Positions 1 through 42,569 of a DNA stretch of 42,569 nt are shown piece after piece. Each line of letters opens with the position of its first letter. Position 1 is the stretch's first letter. Source of the stretch: a virus (lineage: Duplodnaviria > Heunggongvirae > Uroviricota > Caudoviricetes); IMG/VR virus record IMGVR_UViG_2870469529_000003, positions 1 to 42,569 of that record, one strand, 5' to 3'. The translations under genes were made by a program, and so were the position numbers. The notes beneath the pieces were generated by a model, which saw nothing but the letters and a program-made list of their open reading frames with translations, searched no databases and was not told where the DNA came from.

Positions 1-1158
1 ATGCTCACCGTTAAGCAGATTGAAGCAGCAAAGCCGAAAGAAAAACCATACCGCCTTCTCGATGGTAATGGACTGTACCTTTATGTCCCTGTATCCGGGA
101 AAAAGGTATGGCAGCTTCGCTACAAGATTGACGGCAAGGAGAAAATCCTGACCGTAGGAAAATATCCGCTAATGACTTTGCAGGAGGCAAGAGATAAAGC
201 ATGGACCGCGAGGAAAGACATCTCGGTTGGCATCGATCCGGTAAAAGCGAAAAAGGCTTCGTCTAACAACAATTCCTTTAGTGCGATTTACAAGGAATGG
301 TACGAGCACAAGAAGCAAGTCTGGTCAGTAGGCTATGCAACTGAACTTGCAAAAATGTTTGATGACGACATTTTACCTATCATCGGCGGCCTTGAGATTC
401 AGGATATTGAGCCGATGCAACTGCTGGAAGTAATCCGCAGATTTGAAGATCGCGGCGCAATGGAGCGAGCCAACAAAGCACGCAGAAGATGCGGCGAGGT
501 TTTCCGTTACGCTATTGTCACTGGTAGGGCTAAATATAACCCGGCACCTGACCTTGCTGACGCCATGAAGGGATACCGCAAGAAGAACTTCCCGTTTCTT
601 CCTGCAGACCAGATCCCGGCATTCAACAAAGCACTGGCAACATTTTCAGGAAGTATCGTATCGCTCATTGCGACCAAAGTTTTACGCTACACAGCCCTAA
701 GAACGAAAGAGCTTCGTTCCATGCTATGGAAGAACGTCGATTTTGAAAACAGGATTATCACCATCGACGCCAGTGTGATGAAGGGACGCAAAATTCATGT
801 GGTCCCGATGTCAGACCAGGTGGTTGAACTTCTCACTACGCTAAGCTCCATCACCAAACCAGTATCAGAGTTTGTTTTTGCCGGACGCAACGATAAGAAG
901 AAGCCAATCTGCGAGAACGCGGTGCTACTTGTGATCAAACAAATCGGCTATGAGGGTCTGGAAAGCGGTCACGGATTCAGGCATGAATTCAGCACGATTA
1001 TGAACGAGCACGAATGGCCTGCTGACGCTATTGAAGTGCAACTGGCACATGCCAATGGCGGATCTGTGCGCGGGATTTACAACCATGCTCAGTATCTCGA
1101 TAAGCGCAGAGAAATGATGCAGTGGTGGGCGGACTGGCTTGATGAAAAGGTGGAGTGA
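1..1158 (+). CDS. intS: Tyrosine integrase, P4/IntS family (385 aa)
   Basis: N-terminal MLTVKQIEAAKPKEKPYRLLDGNGLYLYV (DUF4102-type arm-binding domain) and C-terminal catalytic domain (HGFRHEF...AHANGGSVRGIY); matches my recollection of K-12 IntS. Confidence 0.9.
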   Translation: MLTVKQIEAAKPKEKPYRLLDGNGLYLYVPVSGKKVWQLRYKIDGKEKILTVGKYPLMTLQEARDKAWTARKDISVGIDPVKAKKASSNNNSFSAIYKEWYEHKKQVWSVGYATELAKMFDDDILPIIGGLEIQDIEPMQLLEVIRRFEDRGAMERANKARRRCGEVFRYAIVTGRAKYNPAPDLADAMKGYRKKNFPFLPADQIPAFNKALATFSGSIVSLIATKVLRYTALRTKELRSMLWKNVDFENRIITIDASVMKGRKIHVVPMSDQVVELLTTLSSITKPVSEFVFAGRNDKKKPICENAVLLVIKQIGYEGLESGHGFRHEFSTIMNEHEWPADAIEVQLAHANGGSVRGIYNHAQYLDKRREMMQWWADWLDEKVE

Positions 1159-1299
1159 TCCACCTTAACCACTATCGAAGAGCACAAAGCCTTGCAATCC
1201 AGTACAAAACTTTGTTTGTCTCATCAACTACCGCAAGTATCGATCGATTGAGACTTGGATGATAGACTTCATGCCTTTGATTATTAGCTGATAGAAGAA

Positions 1300-1662
1300 A
1301 TGTTAAAGCTATTTGCAAAGTACACCTCTATTGGTGTGCTGAACACCCTTATACACTGGGTGGTTTTTGGTGTTTGTATCTATGTCGCGCATACAAACCA
1401 AGCTCTTGCAAACTTCGCAGGTTTCGTTGTGGCTGTGAGCTTTAGCTTCTTCGCGAATGCAAAATTCACATTCAAGGCATCGACTACAACGATGCGCTAC
1501 ATGCTATATGTTGGGTTCATGGGGACACTGAGTGTTACTGTTGGATGGGCTGCTGATAGATGCGCACTTCCCCCGATGATAACTCTTGTCACCTTCTCCG
1601 CCATCAGCCTGGTGTGCGGTTTCGTCTATTCAAAGTTCATTGTCTTTAGGGATGCGAAATGA
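1300..1662 (+). CDS. gtrA: GtrA-family bactoprenol-linked glucose translocase (flippase), 120 aa
   Basis: Small 4-TM hydrophobic protein immediately upstream of a GT2 glycosyltransferase; resembles K-12 YfdG. Confidence 0.85.
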
Positions 1663-2588
1663 AGATATCTCTTGTAGTTCCTGTCTTCAATGAAGAAGAA
1701 GCGATACCAATTTTTTATAAAACGGTACGTGAATTCGAAGAATTGAAGTCATATGAAGTGGAAATTGTTTTCATAAATGACGGCAGCAAAGACGCTACAG
1801 AGTCAATAATTAATGCTCTGGCTGTTTCAGATCCTCTAGTTGTTCCGCTGTCATTTACACGAAACTTTGGTAAAGAACCAGCATTGTTTGCAGGGTTAGA
1901 CCATGCAACAGGTGATGCCGTTATTCCTATTGATGTTGACCTGCAAGACCCGATTGAGGTCATTCCTCATCTGATTGAAAAGTGGCTAGCAGGTGCTGAC
2001 ATGGTGCTTGCTAAACGATCTGACCGCTCAACGGATGGCAGACTGAAGCGAAAAACGGCTGAGTGGTTCTATAAGCTCCACAATAAAATAAGCAATCCGC
2101 AGATAGAGGAAAATGTTGGAGATTTCAGGCTGATGTCTCGCGAGGTAGTGGAGAATATTAAGATCCTGCCAGAACGCAATCTTTTCATGAAAGGTATTCT
2201 TAGTTGGGTTGGTGGGGATACAGATGTTGTTGAGTATGTCCGCGCTGAGCGTGTAGCTGGCAGCACGAAATTCAATGGGTGGAAATTATGGAATCTGGCG
2301 ATAGAAGGAATAACCAGTTTCTCAACCTTCCCCTTGCGAATCTGGACGTATATCGGCTTAGCGGTAGCTGGATGCGCATTTTTGTATGGTTCATGGATGA
2401 TATTCAACACATTGGCATTTGGTAACGCAGTTCGCGGATATCCTTCACTACTTGTTTCAATCCTGTTTCTTGGTGGGGTACAGCTTATCGGGATAGGTGT
2501 TCTCGGGGAGTACATTGGAAGAATATACATTGAATCTAAAGCAAGACCAAAATATTTATTGAAAGGAAATAATAAAAATGAGAGCTAA
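1659..2588 (+). CDS. gtrB: GtrB-family bactoprenol glucosyltransferase (GT2), 309 aa
   Basis: N-terminal GT2 fold (VVPVFNEEE...INDGSKD...DVDLQDP) plus two C-terminal TM helices; start overlaps gtrA stop by 4 nt. Confidence 0.9.
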
Positions 2589-4389
2589 AACTATATATTT
2601 ATTAATATTTGCTTTTGTTATATCAACATATTTAAGTGGACGATTTCCATATAACATAGTAACTAACTCTGACTCAATATACGCCTATTCATTATTTAAA
2701 TCTATATTAACCGGAAATTCAAGTATTTTTGATTGGTACCCATCACCATCACCTTATGTATTCCCTGATCTATTGTTGTACTTTTTTTCTTTCTTGATAG
2801 GTTTTGGCGATGTGTTTTACGTACCTCTGGTTTATATTGTGTTGCAAATGTCATTGTTTTATATAAGCATAATATACATGCTGCGTAACTTATTCAATGA
2901 TAAAAATCACAGTGAATTATCATTATTGATTCTTTTGTCTTCAATTTTTATGGCATATTATTATGAGACTTACTCTATAATGCTAACGCCATTATTTCAC
3001 TTCGGTGTTTTAATTGCGTGCTTTTTTTCAATTGGATTATTATATGGAAGGGAAAACAAATCGCCAACAAAATACTTTGCACTATATGTTTTATCGTTTA
3101 TAAGCTCTTATTCTGATAACATGTATGTGATCTGGTTTTCTTTACCATCAACTGGAATAGCGATTACTTTATTAATCTTAAAAAATGATAAAAAGTATTT
3201 ACTGCCATCTTTTCTTTGCCTTGCAGCATCTCTATTAGGTATGCTCTCAACAAGGTATTTATTTATTAACTCAAGCATGTATGGCTATTCATTTAACGAG
3301 TCTGTCATCACAAATAACTTAATTGATGCATTCAATATTTTTTCATATTCATGGTATGGTTGCTTATTGCTAATATCTTTATTTATAATTGCTATTTACT
3401 CAGCTAAGTGCACAATAGAAAAAAACTATGGTGTGAAGTTTATAATTTCACTTTATTACATATATTCTTTTTTATCTACTTTAATCATCTTATCATTCCA
3501 AGATTCACTACCGCAGGCCGATAGGTACTACTCAATATCATTCTTTATGATGTTTCCTATGATATTTTATGTGTTTTTGTCTTTTGTAAAGATAAAACAT
3601 ATAACTTACGTATGCGCATTTTTCATTATTTTGGTTTTTTTATCTCTTCCTCATGTTAGCTTTATAGGTGCTGATCAGCAATGTTTGATACAAAACATTA
3701 AGTCAACCAATATCCGCAATGGAGTTTCTGGTTATTGGGATTCGAAAAGGCTAATGGCATACGATGATACATTATCAATATCACAAGTTGACCAAAATAT
3801 GAATGCATACAGATGGATAACATCTGAGACGCAATATCACAATGACGCTTATTTTGCGATATTAAATAACAATGACAGCCAGTCTATTAGGTATGATGCA
3901 TTAATAAATTTAAACGGCAATCCTTCACATGTAGGGCAATGTGGTGATTATAAAGTTTTGTTTTATAATAAACCAATAATAATAAACTCACTAAAAAATG
4001 TAGGTGATACATCAATTTTTAGTGGCGCACTCCTTAACTACGCTAATTACAAAAAGGATGGTAATATAATCTATCCTGCGGATGATTTTTCTGGAGGTAA
4101 CTTTAGCTTTGGTCCATTTGCAAAAGCTTACGAAGGAGATTATGAATATGTAGTAACAATTAAAAACAATAAAATGGAAGATGTAAATGGTTATATTGAT
4201 GTGGCAAATAAAAGTGGGAAAAACATTATCGACATAAATAACTTCAACTCAAACAGTTCTGTTATAAAGGTTAGCGGGAAATTCTCAATAAATTCCGATG
4301 ATAACAACACCAACCTAGAGATAAGGACGTTTCTTAGACATAGATATGATATCAGCATTGATAATATATACATAAAAAAAACAAAATAA
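2578..4389 (+). CDS. Serotype-specific O-antigen glucosyltransferase (GtrC-type), 603 aa: polytopic membrane domain plus ~200-aa hydrophilic N/D/S-rich C-terminal domain
   Basis: Third gene of the gtr operon, overlaps gtrB by 11 nt; many predicted TM helices; visibly AT-rich compared with neighbours. Confidence 0.6.
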
Positions 4390-4394
4390 CATCA

Positions 4395-4447
4395 TTTCCA
4401 CCACACCCACACACATACATTATATTTGATGTGTGGGTGTGGTGGAA
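4395..4447. terminator. Bidirectional hairpin terminator between convergent gtrC and tailspike
   Basis: Near-perfect inverted repeat TTCCACCACACCCACACACAT / ATGTGTGGGTGTGGTGGAA around a ~12-nt loop, with A-run upstream and T-rich tract downstream. Confidence 0.6.
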
Positions 4448-4453
4448 TATTAT

Positions 4454-6382
4454 TTAACTTGTAAAAACATTAACTAGCGTTATCTTTCCGCCTGGACGTT
4501 TATATATATAGCTATATCTATCATTATCCGGGGAAATTATTGTCTGACTGCTGTATTCTATGGCTAACATCGGTGTATTAATAGTGTACTCATTGTCTGC
4601 ATAAATGGCATATGAATCACTTTGTTCTGCCTTAAATACACAAGCAGCACCGATAGTACATCTGGTACTTGGTGATAATGTTCTGATAGCTGCTTTGTTT
4701 TCAGTGCCAGAATCAGAGTTTGTACCCCAGTTATTAAACTCAACTGCATCTATGGTCAATGAGCATTCATCACCCAATACTATTGGATTATTATTTACGC
4801 CTCTAATACTGCCAGCAGAAAATGACATAGATGTAGAATTAGTTGCATTAAGGAAGTTATAGGTACGTCGACTGGGTGTGCTGTATTCTCCCATGCCAAG
4901 TGCATCAAAAGAAGACATAACAAAACCATTAACTTTATCAGCCCTTATAGCTGTCATGTTAGTATTCAATGCGGTTGATGCGTGAACAAAATGAGCGTTA
5001 GATATTTGCACAGATTCTACTTTACGTACTGAGTTTCCGTACAGTGCTAAAATCGGGATAGATACTCCTGAAGTATTAGTTGTCTCACCAATATAAATAT
5101 TACTAAGCGCGGTATTTATATGATTTGTTGAAGTATCTTGTGGCTCTAAAGCTATAGCTCCAATATCATATCCTCCATTGCAAAATATATTGCTAGCTCG
5201 ATTGCCACCGGCTGATAACCTTAATGGGCAGCTTCCTCCGTACACTTCCACAGTGTCTAGAACAGAGTCGCTGTACACACGTATGCCACCTCCCGTTGCA
5301 CGGATTGAGATATCTGATGCATCGGTAGCTTCGCAATAAATATCTCGAAATCTTGCAAGTCCTTGACCGTCATAGATAAACCATGTATTGAATCTCTTGC
5401 CAGTTAACTTCTCGTAATACCACCCAGCACCGCGAGTATGCAGTATGGCGTGATTGCACCTCCACTCCCCGTCGAACTGGATGTTTTTGAACTTAATGCT
5501 GTCCTGGCCATCATTAGACTCACCGGAACTAAAGATAAAGTTCTGATTATCATTTAGTGGTTTTATTACGGTAGTGCCAGTATATGCCTGATTAGCGCCC
5601 TGACCTAAAAATGTCAGGCCTTGGGTATGTCCGGGTATAGTGCAGGGTGACATTCTAAGCTCTCCTTTTGGGAGAATAATGTGTCGCACGCCAGCATCTA
5701 TAGCTCTCAGTATTGCTGGGGTTTGGTCAGCAATATGAACTCCACCACCATAGTTTTCAATGTGATCTGAAACAGGTTCTTTTTTCCAGTTGGTATCTAC
5801 TGTCGGTGTAGTGGGAACCATTGAACCTGGTGTGATTTCCCCCTTGTATGAGTAGTATTCATTATTAAATTTGAATGCCTGTAGCGCAGAGTGCAATGGT
5901 GAATTGCTACCAAAATATCCAGATGGAATAAATGGATGCAAATCATATTGCTGTAATTCAAATAGTTTTATTGCATTATCAAGCGTAGAATCTTCATATC
6001 CAACAAGTGAGGCCCCTTCAGGACCAGATAACTCTTTCCTTAGCTGATCAGGATCATACTTCAGCACATTAGGAAAATAGAACTGCTGTGCACCATACGC
6101 ATCATAAACAGCCATAGAATGGCCTTGCACGGTAACGAATTTGGCAATCTGTCCGTTATATACCGGATAACCAGCAGCGTTAATGATGATTGGTTGAGAA
6201 ACAGGAACGTGAGAGCCGTCTTCGTTCTCCACATAAACCTGAATCTGGTTTTCTGGATTTACCGGATCAGTGTCAATTTTACCGATATAAATTTTACCAT
6301 TGGCTACGGCTTTAAAAGAACGCGCCATAGTGAAGAGTTGCGATGGCATTGATACGATCACATTGGCTGTAATGTCTGTCAT
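4454..6382 (-). CDS. Tailspike protein (P22 gp9-like N-terminal head-binding domain, divergent receptor-binding domain)
   Basis: N-terminus [11 protein letters not shown]...[14 protein letters not shown]...LKYDPDQ matches the P22 tailspike head-binding domain; the remainder is a different beta-helix-type domain. Confidence 0.85.
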
Positions 6383-6517: not shown

Positions 6518-6769
6518 ATGGGAAGAGATGACCCGCAATTTAATCTGCGGCTACCTTACGAATTAAAGGAAAAACTAAAACAGCGAGCCAAATCCAATGG
6601 CCGCTCTCTTAATTCAGAATTAGTTCAGATAGTGACTGATGCTGTATCAAAGCCATCCAAAATTTCAGGCTATCGAGACGATGCGGAACGCATCGCTGAT
6701 GAGCAGTCTGAACTTGTTAAGAAGATGGTGTTTGATACGCTGAAGGATTTGTACAAAAAACCCACCTGA
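6518..6769 (+). CDS. mnt: Mnt-like ribbon-helix-helix repressor (83 aa)
   Basis: MGRDDPQFNLRLPYELKEKLKQRAKSNGRSLNSELVQIV... is an Arc/Mnt-type RHH; same length and C-terminal tail (DAERIADEQSELVKKMVFDTLKDLYKK) as I recall for P22 Mnt. Confidence 0.8.
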   Translation: MGRDDPQFNLRLPYELKEKLKQRAKSNGRSLNSELVQIVTDAVSKPSKISGYRDDAERIADEQSELVKKMVFDTLKDLYKKPT

Positions 6770-6780
6770 CGGTGGGTTTC
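6750..6780. terminator. Bidirectional terminator hairpin between convergent mnt and the 322-aa gene
   Basis: AAAAAACCCACC-TGAC-GGTGGGTTTCAT: stem flanked by an A-run on one side and T-run on the other. Confidence 0.55.
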
Positions 6781-6784
6781 ATAA

Positions 6785-7753
6785 TTAGATTTCTGGTTTC
6801 ATTCTTCCGAAAACCTTTTCTATTCCTTTTTCGTATTCTTCTCTTGTCTCACTCATCGCTGCGACACCAAGAAGCTTACCGATATGCTGACGCAAAGCCT
6901 TGACACCAATTTCAGAAAGGAACAGATGCAACTTATCAGATTGTTTTCCGTTCTCGTCTCGGCTGGCTCTAATTTGTTCAAGGATTTTACCTTTACTCTT
7001 TGCTAGCGGGGTGTATATCTGCATGTTGGTTAGCTGCCCAAAACGAATAGGCCGTCCTTTCTCTGGCCTATTCAGGCCGTACAGTCGATACCACTCCTCG
7101 TATAGCTCATCTGGAAATTCCTTTTCATATTGACGAGCCTCTTCACGAACAAACGCTTTGAACTCGTCAATGACAGCCTGAACTTCTGGACGATAACCAG
7201 CAAGCGCATACGCAACCCCCTTAATTCCCGCCTTAGCGGAGGCATTAATAAGTCTCTGTGCTGCGGCGGCTGCCTTTAACCGTGATTGTGGTAGATCGTC
7301 ATTATCTTTGGCTTCTATTAGTGCCCTACCAATATCAACAATTGCTGTAATGTCATAACCTAACGCTTGATGAACGGTTTTAGACTTCGAAGTAAGTTGA
7401 AATTTATAGGGATTTTCCATTTTTCGCTGCAATTCTAGATCTCGGTATTTGCTCATATACTGAGCGCCAAGCAGTTGATCTAAATCCCTGGCATGTTCAC
7501 CAATCCCTAGCAACTGAGATAATCCAGTTTTCGTAACAACGACAGTTTTCGACTCGTCATCCAGTACATAACATTCAGCGTCAATGCCAAAATCATCTAA
7601 AAAGTTACCACGATGAGTTGCCCTGAGAATCTTACTTTTCCATCTTGCAGCAGCTGCTTTCTTTGCTATTTCAGAACGCTGCTCTTTAGTCAGCGACTTT
7701 GCGCGAGCGATCCCGCCCTTAGCTTTCCCTTCGCCACTTTTCTTTTCAGTCAT
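6785..7753 (-). CDS. Hypothetical protein (322 aa from MTEKKSG...), basic N-terminal segment, function unknown; occupies the immI/sieA cargo slot
   Basis: Long ORF; plausible start at 7753 preceded by AAAGG; N-terminus GGIARAKSLTKEQRSEIAKKAAAARW looks like a DNA-binding motif; own promoter upstream. Confidence 0.7.
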   Translation of the reverse strand: MTEKKSGEGKAKGGIARAKSLTKEQRSEIAKKAAAARWKSKILRATHRGNFLDDFGIDAECYVLDDESKTVVVTKTGLSQLLGIGEHARDLDQLLGAQYMSKYRDLELQRKMENPYKFQLTSKSKTVHQALGYDITAIVDIGRALIEAKDNDDLPQSRLKAAAAAQRLINASAKAGIKGVAYALAGYRPEVQAVIDEFKAFVREEARQYEKEFPDELYEEWYRLYGLNRPEKGRPIRFGQLTNMQIYTPLAKSKGKILEQIRASRDENGKQSDKLHLFLSEIGVKALRQHIGKLLGVAAMSETREEYEKGIEKVFGRMKPEI

Positions 7754-7754
7754 A

Positions 7755-7844
7755 ATGCAAGCACCTTTGTTGTGATGTATGCTTGCATTATATGCACTGT
7801 ACACACATACAAGCAAGCATAAAACTAAAACAAAATGCTTGCAT
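7755..7844 (-). promoter_or_regulatory. Promoter (-35 TTGCTT, 18-nt spacer, -10 TATAAT) bracketed by two inverted-repeat pairs of the 9-10-bp motif ATGCAAGCA / ATGCTTGCAT
   Basis: Motif copies at ~7755-7763, 7779-7788, 7812-7820 and 7835-7844 in alternating orientation; perfect TATAAT on the minus strand at ~7787-7792. Confidence 0.5.
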
Positions 7845-7909
7845 TACAACCGCGCTACTCCAACTACACATTATCATCTGGTATCCTGCTCAAAACTAAG
7901 GAGGTTGGT

Positions 7910-8098
7910 GTGAAGAAAAAATTTGTAAACGTTGCAAAGTGCGCAATTTTTATATTTTTTATGACCTTTTACGGATTTAGTGCCGGAGAAGGTTTCGATC
8001 GTGATGCCAATGCATTCAGTTTCTTTTGTCTGTCTATAGTGGTCATAATTGTATGGGTGGAGTTAAAGCAAACATTGTTTCATGTGCTAGGGAAATAA
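7910..8098 (+). CDS. Small hydrophobic (probably membrane) protein, 62 aa from a GTG start
   Basis: AGGAGG 5 nt upstream of GTG at 7910; sequence VKKKFVNVAKCAIFIFFMTFYGF...SFFCLSIVVIIVWVEL has two hydrophobic segments; transcribed divergently from the late operon. Confidence 0.4.
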   Translation: MKKKFVNVAKCAIFIFFMTFYGFSAGEGFDRDANAFSFFCLSIVVIIVWVELKQTLFHVLGK

Positions 8099-40591: not shown

Positions 40592-40792
40592 ATGCAACAC
40601 GAACTACAGCCTGATTCCCTGGTTGATTTGAAATTCATCATGGCCGATACTGGCTTCGGTAAAACCTTCATCTATGACCGGATTAAGTCCGGAGACCTGC
40701 CTAAAGCCAAAGTTATCCACGGGCGAGCAAGATGGTTATATCGTGACCATTGTGAATTCAAAAATAAGCTCTTAAGCCGCGCCAATGGGTAA
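40592..40792 (+). CDS. torI: Excisionase / recombination directionality factor, TorI (AlpA/Xis) family, 66 aa
   Basis: MQHELQPDSLVDLKFIMADTGFGKTFIYDRIKSGDLPKAKVIHGRARWLYRDHCEFKNKLLSRANG matches my recollection of K-12 TorI; winged-helix excisionase fold. Confidence 0.85.
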   Translation: MQHELQPDSLVDLKFIMADTGFGKTFIYDRIKSGDLPKAKVIHGRARWLYRDHCEFKNKLLSRANG

Positions 40793-40865: not shown

Positions 40866-40880
40866 CTGCAGGGGACACCA
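40866..40880 (+). other. attR core: 15-bp match to the 3' end of tRNA-Arg (argW type)
   Basis: CTGCAGGGGACACCA matches the acceptor-stem/CCA end of tRNA-Arg(CCU) as I recall it; about 75 bp downstream of torI. Confidence 0.6.
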
Positions 40881-41321: not shown

Positions 41322-42569
41322 CTATATTGCTGAAGGTACAGGCGTTTCCATAACTATTTGCTCGCGTTTTTTACTCAAGAAGAAAATGCCAAATAGCAAC
41401 ATCAGGCAGACAATACCCGAAATTGCGAAGAAAACTGTCTGGTAGCCTGCGTGGTCAAAGAGTATCCCAGTCGGCGTTGAAAGCAGCACAATCCCAAGCG
41501 AACTGGCAATTTGAAAACCAATCAGAAAGATCGTCGACGACAGGCGCTTATCAAAGTTTGCCACGCTGTATTTGAAGACGGATATGACACAAAGTGGAAC
41601 CTCAATGGCATGTAACAACTTCACTAATGAAATAATCCAGGGGTTAACGAACAGCGCGCAGGAAAGGATACGCAACGCCATAATCACAACTCCGATAAGT
41701 AATGCATTTTTTGGCCCTACCCGATTCACAAAGAAAGGAATAATCGCCATGCACAGCGCTTCGAGTACCACCTGGAATGAGTTGAGATAACCATACAGGC
41801 GCGTTCCTACATCGTGTGATTCGAATAAACCTGCATAAAAGACAGGAAAAAGTTGTTGATCAAAAATGTTATAGAAAGACCACGTCCCCACAATAAATAT
41901 GACGAAAACCCAGAAGTTTCGATCCTTGAAAACTGCGATAAAATCCTCTTTTTTTACCCCTCCCGCATCTGCCGCTACGCACTGGTGATCCTTATCTTTA
42001 AAACGCATGTTGATCATCATAAATACAGCGCCAAATAGCGAGACCAACCAGAAGTTGATATGGGGACTGATACTAAAAAATATGCCGGCAAAGAACGCGC
42101 CAATAGCATAGCCAAAAGATCCCCAGGCGCGCGCTGTTCCATATTCGAAATGAAAATTTCGCGCCATTTTTTCGGTGAAGCTATCAAGCAAACCGCATCC
42201 CGCCAGATACCCCAGGCCAAAAAATAGCGCCCCCAGAATTAGACCTACAGAAAAATTGCTTTGCAGTAACGGTTCATAAACGTAAATCATAAACGGTCCG
42301 GTCAAGACCAGGATGAAACTCATACACCAGATGAGCGGTTTCTTCAGACCGAGTTTATCCTGAACGATGCCGTAGAACATCATAAATAGAATGCTGGTAA
42401 ACTGGTTGACCGAATAAAGTGTACCTAATTCCGTCCCTGTCAACCCTAGATGTCCTTTCAGCCAAATAGCGTATAACGACCACCACAGCGACCAGGAAAT
42501 AAAAAAGAGAAATGAGTAACTGGATGCAAAACGATAGTACGCATTTCTGAATGGAATATTCAGTGCCAT
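41322..42569 (-). CDS. cscB: Sucrose:H+ symporter, LacY/oligosaccharide-H+ symporter family (MFS), 415 aa; host gene
   Basis: 12-TM MFS protein with clear LacY-like pattern; matches my recollection of CscB. Confidence 0.8.
   Translation of the reverse strand: MALNIPFRNAYYRFASSYSFLFFISWSLWWSLYAIWLKGHLGLTGTELGTLYSVNQFTSILFMMFYGIVQDKLGLKKPLIWCMSFILVLTGPFMIYVYEPLLQSNFSVGLILGALFFGLGYLAGCGLLDSFTEKMARNFHFEYGTARAWGSFGYAIGAFFAGIFFSISPHINFWLVSLFGAVFMMINMRFKDKDHQCVAADAGGVKKEDFIAVFKDRNFWVFVIFIVGTWSFYNIFDQQLFPVFYAGLFESHDVGTRLYGYLNSFQVVLEALCMAIIPFFVNRVGPKNALLIGVVIMALRILSCALFVNPWIISLVKLLHAIEVPLCVISVFKYSVANFDKRLSSTIFLIGFQIASSLGIVLLSTPTGILFDHAGYQTVFFAISGIVCLMLLFGIFFLSKKREQIVMETPVPSAI

Follow-up and report, generated by a model that had tools for sequence, protein, structure and literature searches.

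The 42,569-nucleotide (nt) stretch of DNA analysed here (IMG/VR virus record IMGVR_UViG_2870469529_000003, positions 1 to 42,569; hereafter the window) is from a P22-like Escherichia coli prophage inserted at argW and carries, between its integrase (int) and tailspike genes, a three-component periplasmic glycosylation system, gtrABC. Two features of this locus appear to be new. The third gene, gtrC, seems to represent a type without sequence relationship to the known ones, in which an architecture so far associated with pentofuranose systems (a GT-C glycosyltransferase with a carbohydrate-binding module, CBM) would be joined to a glucose-donor pair; and this gene appears to be co-inherited with the receptor domain of the tailspike, as a cassette, across phage morphotypes.

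As the best explanation of the data as a whole, to which we assign a probability of roughly 70%, GtrC would glucosylate a surface polysaccharide and be linked to, and exchanged together with, a matching tailspike receptor domain. GtrA would flip undecaprenyl-phosphate glucose to the periplasmic face, where GtrC, with D32 as its likely catalytic base, would transfer glucose onto the host surface polysaccharide, while its conserved periplasmic domain and CBM-like beta-sandwich would most likely hold the acceptor. The most likely acceptor is the O-antigen that serves the phage's own tailspike as receptor and cleavage substrate, and the lysogen would be masked against this phage and against others using that receptor. 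The cassette, consisting of gtrC, a terminator and the receptor domain, would be exchanged by recombination in the flanking gtrA/gtrB and tailspike anchor sequences, its parts being kept and swapped together because both proteins would be useful only on one polysaccharide. A new O-antigen modification specificity, as the sequence-only reading of this locus had suggested, is plausible, and in its functional part that reading holds in broad terms.

Linkage of gtrC with the tailspike receptor domain

Close relatives of GtrC are very scarce: a collection of 5.8 billion proteins contained only 3 clusters (100%, 73% and 63% identity), all of them 603 amino acids (aa) long and aligning without gaps. 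In all three known gtrC lineages, which span podovirus-type and siphovirus-type phages, the gene is adjacent to, and convergent with, the same receptor-domain family. The 73% homologue resides in a siphovirus-type prophage, termed L001, whose host belongs to the Enterobacteriaceae but is not E. coli. This prophage has lambda-like tail genes (tape measure, gpJ), and its convergent tailspike bears a different anchor (PF18668), the C-terminal 528 aa of that tailspike being 67% identical to aa 114-642 of the window tailspike. In the third lineage (the 63% homologue; positions 2216-4137 of L004, a contig of 37% GC), what remains of the receptor domain beyond gtrC is a decayed stretch of 65 aa, cut by an IS4 element; pieces of an IS4-family transposase and of an integrase come next, and the locus looks like a decaying prophage end.

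At the DNA level, the window and L001 share a single colinear alignment of 4.7 kb (window 1299-6007) that ends at about tailspike aa 125, the exchange junction lying just after the anchor domain, as in known tailspike swaps. We considered whether gtrAB belong to a block specific to these two prophages and ruled this out, the window gtrAB being closer to those of E. coli and Shigella than to those of L001. Because the similarity of gtrAB reflects general conservation, the specifically shared block comprises gtrC, the terminator and the receptor domain. The terminator is a bidirectional intrinsic hairpin with calculated energies of -35.5 kcal/mol on the plus strand and -37.2 kcal/mol on the minus strand (z scores of -6.5 and -6.9; none of 200 shuffled sequences was equally stable); L001 has a hairpin of other sequence at the same position between gtrC and the tailspike gene.

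A second E. coli P22-like prophage (L051/L052), located at the lambda attachment (att) site, harbors a gtrABC-tailspike module that is 98.3% identical to that of the window, the blastn match beginning at window position 1214. The two GtrC proteins are 100% identical, their genes differing by 3 synonymous changes. E. coli genomes with the module include GCA_012307305.1 and SRR9852774. Divergence between the window and L052 is 7.8% in gtrA, 1.0% in gtrB, 0.17% in gtrC, 0% in the intergenic segment, 0.45% in the receptor domain and 6.6% in the head-binding domain, a pattern that is the footprint expected if the core is exchanged by homologous recombination in conserved flanks. Since the window prophage occupies argW and the second one the lambda att site, the same gtrABC-tailspike module has been combined with two integration systems.

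The same arms, namely gtrAB on one side and, on the right-hand side, the tailspike head-binding domain, a conserved P22-like anchor, were found in 1674 of 5426 complete E. coli genomes (about 31%), where they enclose gtrC types and receptor domains that differ from those of the window; none of the 5426 carries the gtrC described here. This finding lends some weight to an alternative in which gtrC and the tailspike receptor domain are neighbours by location only and have no functional match, since P22-like phages would generally accept O-antigen modification genes between int/att and the tailspike gene. We regard this as unlikely, as so rare a gtrC nevertheless has the same receptor-domain family beside it in all three lineages, the linkage holds in a lambda-like siphovirus prophage with another anchor and even in a decayed copy, and the near-identical core covers gtrC, the terminator and the receptor domain alike. 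By these comparisons, gtrC, the terminator and the receptor domain appear to be inherited as a single block, and receptor specificity and the putative receptor-masking enzyme would therefore move together between phages. The sequence-only reading had paired gtrC with the tailspike and had pointed to the unusual length and AT content of the gene; the pairing itself stands, on the evidence of comparative linkage (three of three lineages, and a 99.5-99.8% identical core flanked by gtrA and head-binding sequence diverged by 7-8%), while length and AT content proved not to be unusual, as detailed below.

Several minor observations concern these loci. In the E. coli genomes with other cores, the arms are 4.5-4.8 kb apart, and the gtrC families named between them are Glucos_trans_II-like and DUF6056. 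In the second E. coli prophage (L051 2270-2730 and L052 1-365), the order is bioA, ybhB, the lambda att core TTAGTATAAAAAAGC and gtrA, with no int beside gtrA. The gtrA gene of L001 (6653-7084) is called as 143 aa; since homology to the window gtrA begins at residue 24, an internal ATG, the start codon of the L001 gene was probably placed too far upstream.

Domain structure of GtrC and mosaic history of its gene

The architecture of GtrC was analysed on an AlphaFold2 model built from a 40-sequence alignment (predicted local distance difference test, pLDDT, 88; predicted template modelling score, pTM, 0.84), which replaced an unusable model from 3 sequences (pLDDT 42). The model shows about 13 membrane helices, in agreement with hydropathy, and a multi-helix membrane core that is superimposable on solved GT-C enzymes; the figures listed for the latter are 18.3 for AglB, 16.0 for AftA, 15.4 for ArnT, 15.3 for ALG12, 15.1 for Pmt4 and 14.1 for PimE. 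Judged by this model, the third protein is a GT-C glycosyltransferase. Between model helices 1 and 2, D32 is invariant and D64 near-invariant among the 40 sequences, which share about 20% mutual identity, and D32 thus occupies the acidic position that GT-C enzymes typically conserve in their first extracytoplasmic loop. A polytopic, low-GC, type-specific third gene is likewise what a gtrABC operon should contain.

The remaining 239 aa of the protein (365-603) form a hydrophilic region with abundant N (13.8%), D (8.8%), S (9.2%) and Y (7.1%). It comprises a conserved periplasmic alpha/beta domain (aa 365-470), which occurs in short and long forms of the family alike, and a C-terminal beta-sandwich (aa 471-603) predicted with confidence and resembling a CBM. 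In the BFVD fold search only this beta-sandwich domain was matched, and a PDB sequence search with GtrC gave no match. Homology of the C-terminal domain to a part of the tailspike was also considered and ruled out, the two having no similarity. The ratio of nonsynonymous to synonymous substitution (dN/dS, Nei-Gojobori) is 0.1-0.3 in the membrane, middle and C-terminal domains, and the gene is thus under purifying selection.

These data bear out much of what the sequence-only reading had described, namely a 603-aa protein with a polytopic membrane part and a hydrophilic, N/D/S/Y-rich C-terminal domain (about 200 aa in that reading; a periplasmic region of roughly 240 aa in the present analysis), larger than its K-12 counterpart (YfdI, 443 aa, 160 aa shorter) and encoded by a gene more AT-rich than its neighbours. 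The GC content of gtrC is 29.7% (28% at third codon positions), as against 45.7% for gtrA, 42.0% for gtrB, 48.2% for int and 46.5% for the window, and the low-GC tract also takes in the tailspike gene's 3' half (37% GC for aa 400-642). What did not hold is that either property is unusual. Low GC is normal for gtrC genes (31.8% in gtrII, 33.3% in gtrV, 27.6% in yfdI and 32.0% in the P22-type gene; 27.6-38% over five genes), and 603 aa is not long for the family to which GtrC belongs, because the lengths of its members are bimodal (about 500 and about 640 aa). The K-12 gene is a counterpart in operon position, while GtrC has no sequence relationship to the K-12, Shigella or P22 types.

Comparison of the three homologous gtrC genes pointed to a mosaic history. 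In the membrane domain (aa 1-364), L001 and L004 are 91% identical at the aa level (synonymous divergence, dS, 0.16), whereas the window is distant from both (66% and dS 1.1 with L001; 64% and dS 1.2 with L004). In the periplasmic domain (aa 365-470), it is the window and L001 that are close (90%, dS 0.25), whereas L004 is distant from L001 (64%, dS 1.6) and from the window (66%, dS 2.1). The unequal identity and dS across domains therefore indicate that the two halves of the enzyme have different histories, that is, domain-level recombination. This would fit an enzyme made of a catalytic, donor-binding membrane half and an exchangeable half for acceptor recognition.

Family membership, sugar donor and comparison with known systems

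A profile search among 1.84 billion representative sequences retrieved 669 remote relatives of GtrC at E<=1e-3, of which 52 had E<=1e-30. The long-class relatives align as far as GtrC positions 600-603, while the short class ends at about position 465. The family has gone unrecognised by annotation resources: GtrC matched no Pfam, NCBIfam, PHROG or PADLOC family, its sole match being a marginal one to phrog_35399 (function not assigned there); none of 40 family members matched Pfam; and the named members all carry the label "hypothetical protein". Neither sequenced phages nor complete genomes of E. coli yielded this gtrC in blastn and tblastn searches, with the window protein or one remote relative as query. 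On these profile matches, GtrC belongs to what appears to be a large unnamed GT-C family, distinct from the known GtrC types.

In agreement with the sequence-only reading, GtrA and GtrB are conserved members of their families, as seen from their PF04138, PF00535 and PHROG matches and from aa identities of 88-99% to Shigella-phage and K-12 proteins: GtrA is 99% identical to K-12 YfdG and 88-89% to GtrA of SfII and SfV, and GtrB is 90-91% identical to GtrB of SfII, SfV and K-12. According to the literature, the Shigella-phage and K-12 GtrB proteins are glucose-donor enzymes. The gtrB product is thus probably a GT2 undecaprenyl-phosphate glucose synthase and the gtrA product is the proposed flippase for this compound; because of these identities (about 90% for GtrB and 99% for GtrA), the donor offered to GtrC would almost certainly be undecaprenyl-phosphate glucose. 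Both genes lie directly upstream of gtrC on the same strand, the arrangement characteristic of gtrABC, with overlaps of 4 nt between gtrA and gtrB and 11 nt between gtrB and gtrC.

The gene context of the relatives is different. Genes for a UbiA-type prenyl-phosphoribose synthase and for DprE1-like and DprE2-like epimerases adjoin 3 of 6 metagenomic relatives and were present in 15 of 30 named-genome loci, including those of Serratia proteamaculans, Massilia and Pseudomonas bohemica; some of these UbiA-type synthases carry a HAD module. Other relatives adjoin a GT2 gene, with or without gtrA. By gene context, the donor may be lipid-phosphate-linked, the candidate suppliers being gtrAB in the window and UbiA/DprE1/DprE2-like or GT2/GtrA proteins beside the relatives.

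Among characterised enzymes, the most instructive comparison is with ORF12 of Citrobacter youngae O1, the founder of CAZy family GT136, which has 652 aa, a GT-C part and a CBM at residues 503-652 (Kelly et al. 2024, PMC11127046). Its CBM binds unmodified O-polysaccharide, and D31, E34, H106 and R349 are needed (PMC11127046). By this published description, ORF12 and GtrC share the GT-C architecture with a C-terminal CBM (503-652 versus the CBM-like 471-603), an Asp after the first transmembrane helix (D31 versus D32), a His and a late Arg-Tyr pair (R349-Y350 versus R316-Y317), and both belong to three-component systems for post-polymerisation modification. The shorter family members (about 500 aa), which lack a CBM and stop near position 465, parallel the active truncation ORF12(1-502), and the ORF12-type neighbourhood (UbiA-type phosphoribose synthase and epimerases) recurs beside remote GtrC relatives. 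None of the top 150 GtrC family matches had the residue pattern of ORF12 at ORF12 numbering. The two systems differ in their partners, which are a phosphoribose synthase and a MATE flippase for ORF12 but GtrA and GtrB for GtrC; an association with a polyprenyl-phosphoribose synthase, alone or together with epimerases, does not exist in the window; and, unlike ORF12, the window gtrC is phage-borne and tailspike-linked. The mycobacterial arabinofuranosyltransferases AftA, EmbA/B/C and AftD are also listed among the closest known systems.

Classical gtrABC loci (SfII, SfV, SfX, P22, ε34, yfdGHI of CPS-53, and Hf4s) have the same order of gtrA, gtrB and a membrane protein gene, lie near int and are convergent with a tail gene; their GtrA and GtrB are 88-99% identical, and gtrC has a low GC content there as here. 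The difference resides in GtrC, that of the window being 115-190 aa longer than the classical proteins, carrying the CBM-like C-terminal domain and having no detectable sequence similarity to them; nor does it match Glucos_trans_II or DUF6056, the Pfam families after which E. coli genes at the gtrC position are named. As for the tailspike, receptor domains are known to be exchanged among P22, 9NA and Det7 and among the TSP modules of Kuttervirus phages, and the window domain likewise occurs in podovirus-type and siphovirus-type prophages and in myoviruses. It is about 67% identical to the C-termini of TSP4 of the Kuttervirus phages EP75 (gp169), SJ3, PhiSH19, moki and SPTD1, and sequence searches gave no solved homologue. 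In the temperate phages this domain travels with an O-antigen modification gene and a terminator, while the Kuttervirus TSP4 is an orphan.

Five observations speak against glucosylation of a tailspike-matched O-antigen by GtrC. (i) No match to the sigma-70 consensus was found upstream of gtrA (1159-1299). (ii) GtrC has no significant similarity to GtrII, GtrV, Hf4s GtrC, YfdI or P22-type GtrC (hhalign probabilities of 0.3-27%); however, since known GtrC types are mutually dissimilar (PMC2629481), homology to a characterised GtrC is a weak criterion of membership. (iii) The CBM of ORF12 is dispensable for catalysis under the conditions tested, ORF12(1-502) being active (PMC11127046), which makes the role of the CBM uncertain. 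(iv) Published tests of the homologous TSP4 of EP75 and SPTD1 detected neither activity on any of the strains used nor a host (PMC8217332, PMC9965104); because of this, an O-antigen receptor for the window tailspike is assumed by analogy. (v) The relatives of GtrC seem mostly to accompany pentofuranose rather than glucose donors, and the case for use of undecaprenyl-phosphate glucose by GtrC is therefore that of its operon context.

The neighbourhoods of the relatives invite a more far-reaching scenario, which we consider possible though rather doubtful. In it, a GT136-like family with GT-C and CBM parts, usually found with polyprenyl-phosphate pentofuranose pathways in environmental Proteobacteria, would have been recruited into a phage gtrAB operon supplying a glucose donor, the periplasmic acceptor half being exchanged separately and co-evolving with the linked tailspike domain. 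If true, the linked pair would be a portable module for a single polysaccharide, with the tailspike as the key to it and the glycosyltransferase as the lock-changer, and it would point to the receptor of the orphan TSP4 of EP75 and SPTD1.

It is improbable, in our view, that GtrC glycosylates something other than the O-antigen (capsule, enterobacterial common antigen or protein) or draws on a donor other than that of GtrB, even though the prevalence of pentofuranose-donor genes beside its relatives would agree with another donor, the literature describes the receptor of TSP4, which belongs to the linked receptor-domain family, as elusive, and one PHROG match of the tailspike is annotated as colanic-acid, a match that includes the common head-binding domain. 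Against this stand the 11-nt overlap of gtrC with gtrB, the 90-99% identity of GtrA and GtrB to the Shigella-phage and K-12 proteins, and the absence of pentofuranose-pathway genes from the first 8 kb of the window. Finally, an artefact (frameshift or fusion) or gene decay as the origin of the C-terminal 200-240 aa, named beforehand as a condition that would undo the sequence-only reading and suggested by compositional oddity alone, is refuted by the three gap-free homologues of equal length, the complete identity of GtrC in two prophages, the remote homologues that align to its last residues, the dN/dS of 0.19-0.27 in the C-terminal domain and the confidently predicted fold.

Significance of the gtrC-tailspike cassette

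Phage O-antigen modification shapes serotype, vaccine targets and the host range available to phage therapy, and the gtrC type described here has been missed by annotation resources, being entered as "hypothetical protein" in NCBI. The locus would connect classical glucosylation with pentofuranose enzymes, reported only recently, that have GT-C and CBM parts. The footprint of arms around a core offers a concrete view of how receptor specificity and masking may be swapped jointly across phage morphologies, and could be useful for sequence-based prediction of host range and superinfection immunity; the E. coli genomes with the same arms constitute a ready data set for co-variation of gtrC and receptor domain. 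The locus is also a lead toward the receptor of TSP4, an orphan among Kuttervirus tailspikes that is widely conserved and serves as a scaffold for engineering; from the serogroup of E. coli lysogens with this prophage, a candidate receptor could be proposed.

Layout of the locus and prophage context

The features of the window are compiled in Table 1.

Table 1. Coordinates of the gtrABC-tailspike locus and of other features of the window
Feature	Position	Strand	Remarks
int	1-1158	+	Pfam integrase domains
gtrA upstream region (presumed gtr promoter region)	1214-1299	+	also present in the second E. coli prophage (L051/L052)
gtrA	1300-1662	+	120 aa; PF04138, E=2.4e-13; phrog_2224, E=9e-70
gtrB	1659-2588	+	309 aa; PF00535, E=1.8e-30; phrog_841 and phrog_34335 (GtrB)
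gtrC (third open reading frame)	2578-4389	+	603 aa
gtrC aa 1-364, polytopic GT-C membrane domain (predicted)	2578-3669	+	invariant D32, H141, S179-D180, R316-Y317
gtrC aa 365-470, conserved periplasmic alpha/beta domain	3670-3987	+	invariant C369, C455
gtrC aa 471-603 and stop, C-terminal beta-sandwich, CBM-like	3988-4389	+	structure model
Bidirectional intrinsic terminator hairpin	4396-4447	both	between convergent gtrC and tailspike; near-perfect stem of ~19 bp
Tailspike	4454-6382	-	convergent with gtrC
Tailspike aa 114-642, receptor-binding region	4454-6043	-	phrog_34776, E=7.6e-255
Tailspike aa 1-113, head-binding domain	6044-6382	-	PF09008, E=1.4e-66; PDB matches to Sf6 and P22 tailspike N-domains
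Mnt/Arc repressor	6518-6769	+	
P63C-domain protein	6785-7816	-	343 aa
Hydrophobic open reading frame	7835-8098	+	87 aa; no family
xis (excisionase)	40592-40792		
cscB, host sucrose permease	41322-42569	-	

The last 15 nt of the tRNA-Arg gene argW, CTGCAGGGGACACCA, are repeated at 40866-40880, just past the excisionase gene, and the prophage-host junction falls within the window, between 40592 and 42569. Because the argW repeat, xis and cscB place this junction, position 1 of the window corresponds to the start codon of int, a little inward of attL. The order of int followed by gtrA at argW matches that of K-12 CPS-53 (argW-intS-yfdG-yfdH-yfdI). A P22-style location of attP between int and gtrA was considered and ruled out here, as the argW core repeat lies beyond xis and CPS-53 has the same order.

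The Dam/OxyR phase-variation signature of a Salmonella gtr subclass consists of four GATC sites, arranged as two pairs in OxyR half-sites upstream of gtrA; it is lacking here, as positions 1150-1299 contain no more than two GATC sites, separated by about 85 bp. Beyond the tailspike, and before the ejection-protein genes, the window contains an immI-like moron region (6518-8098).

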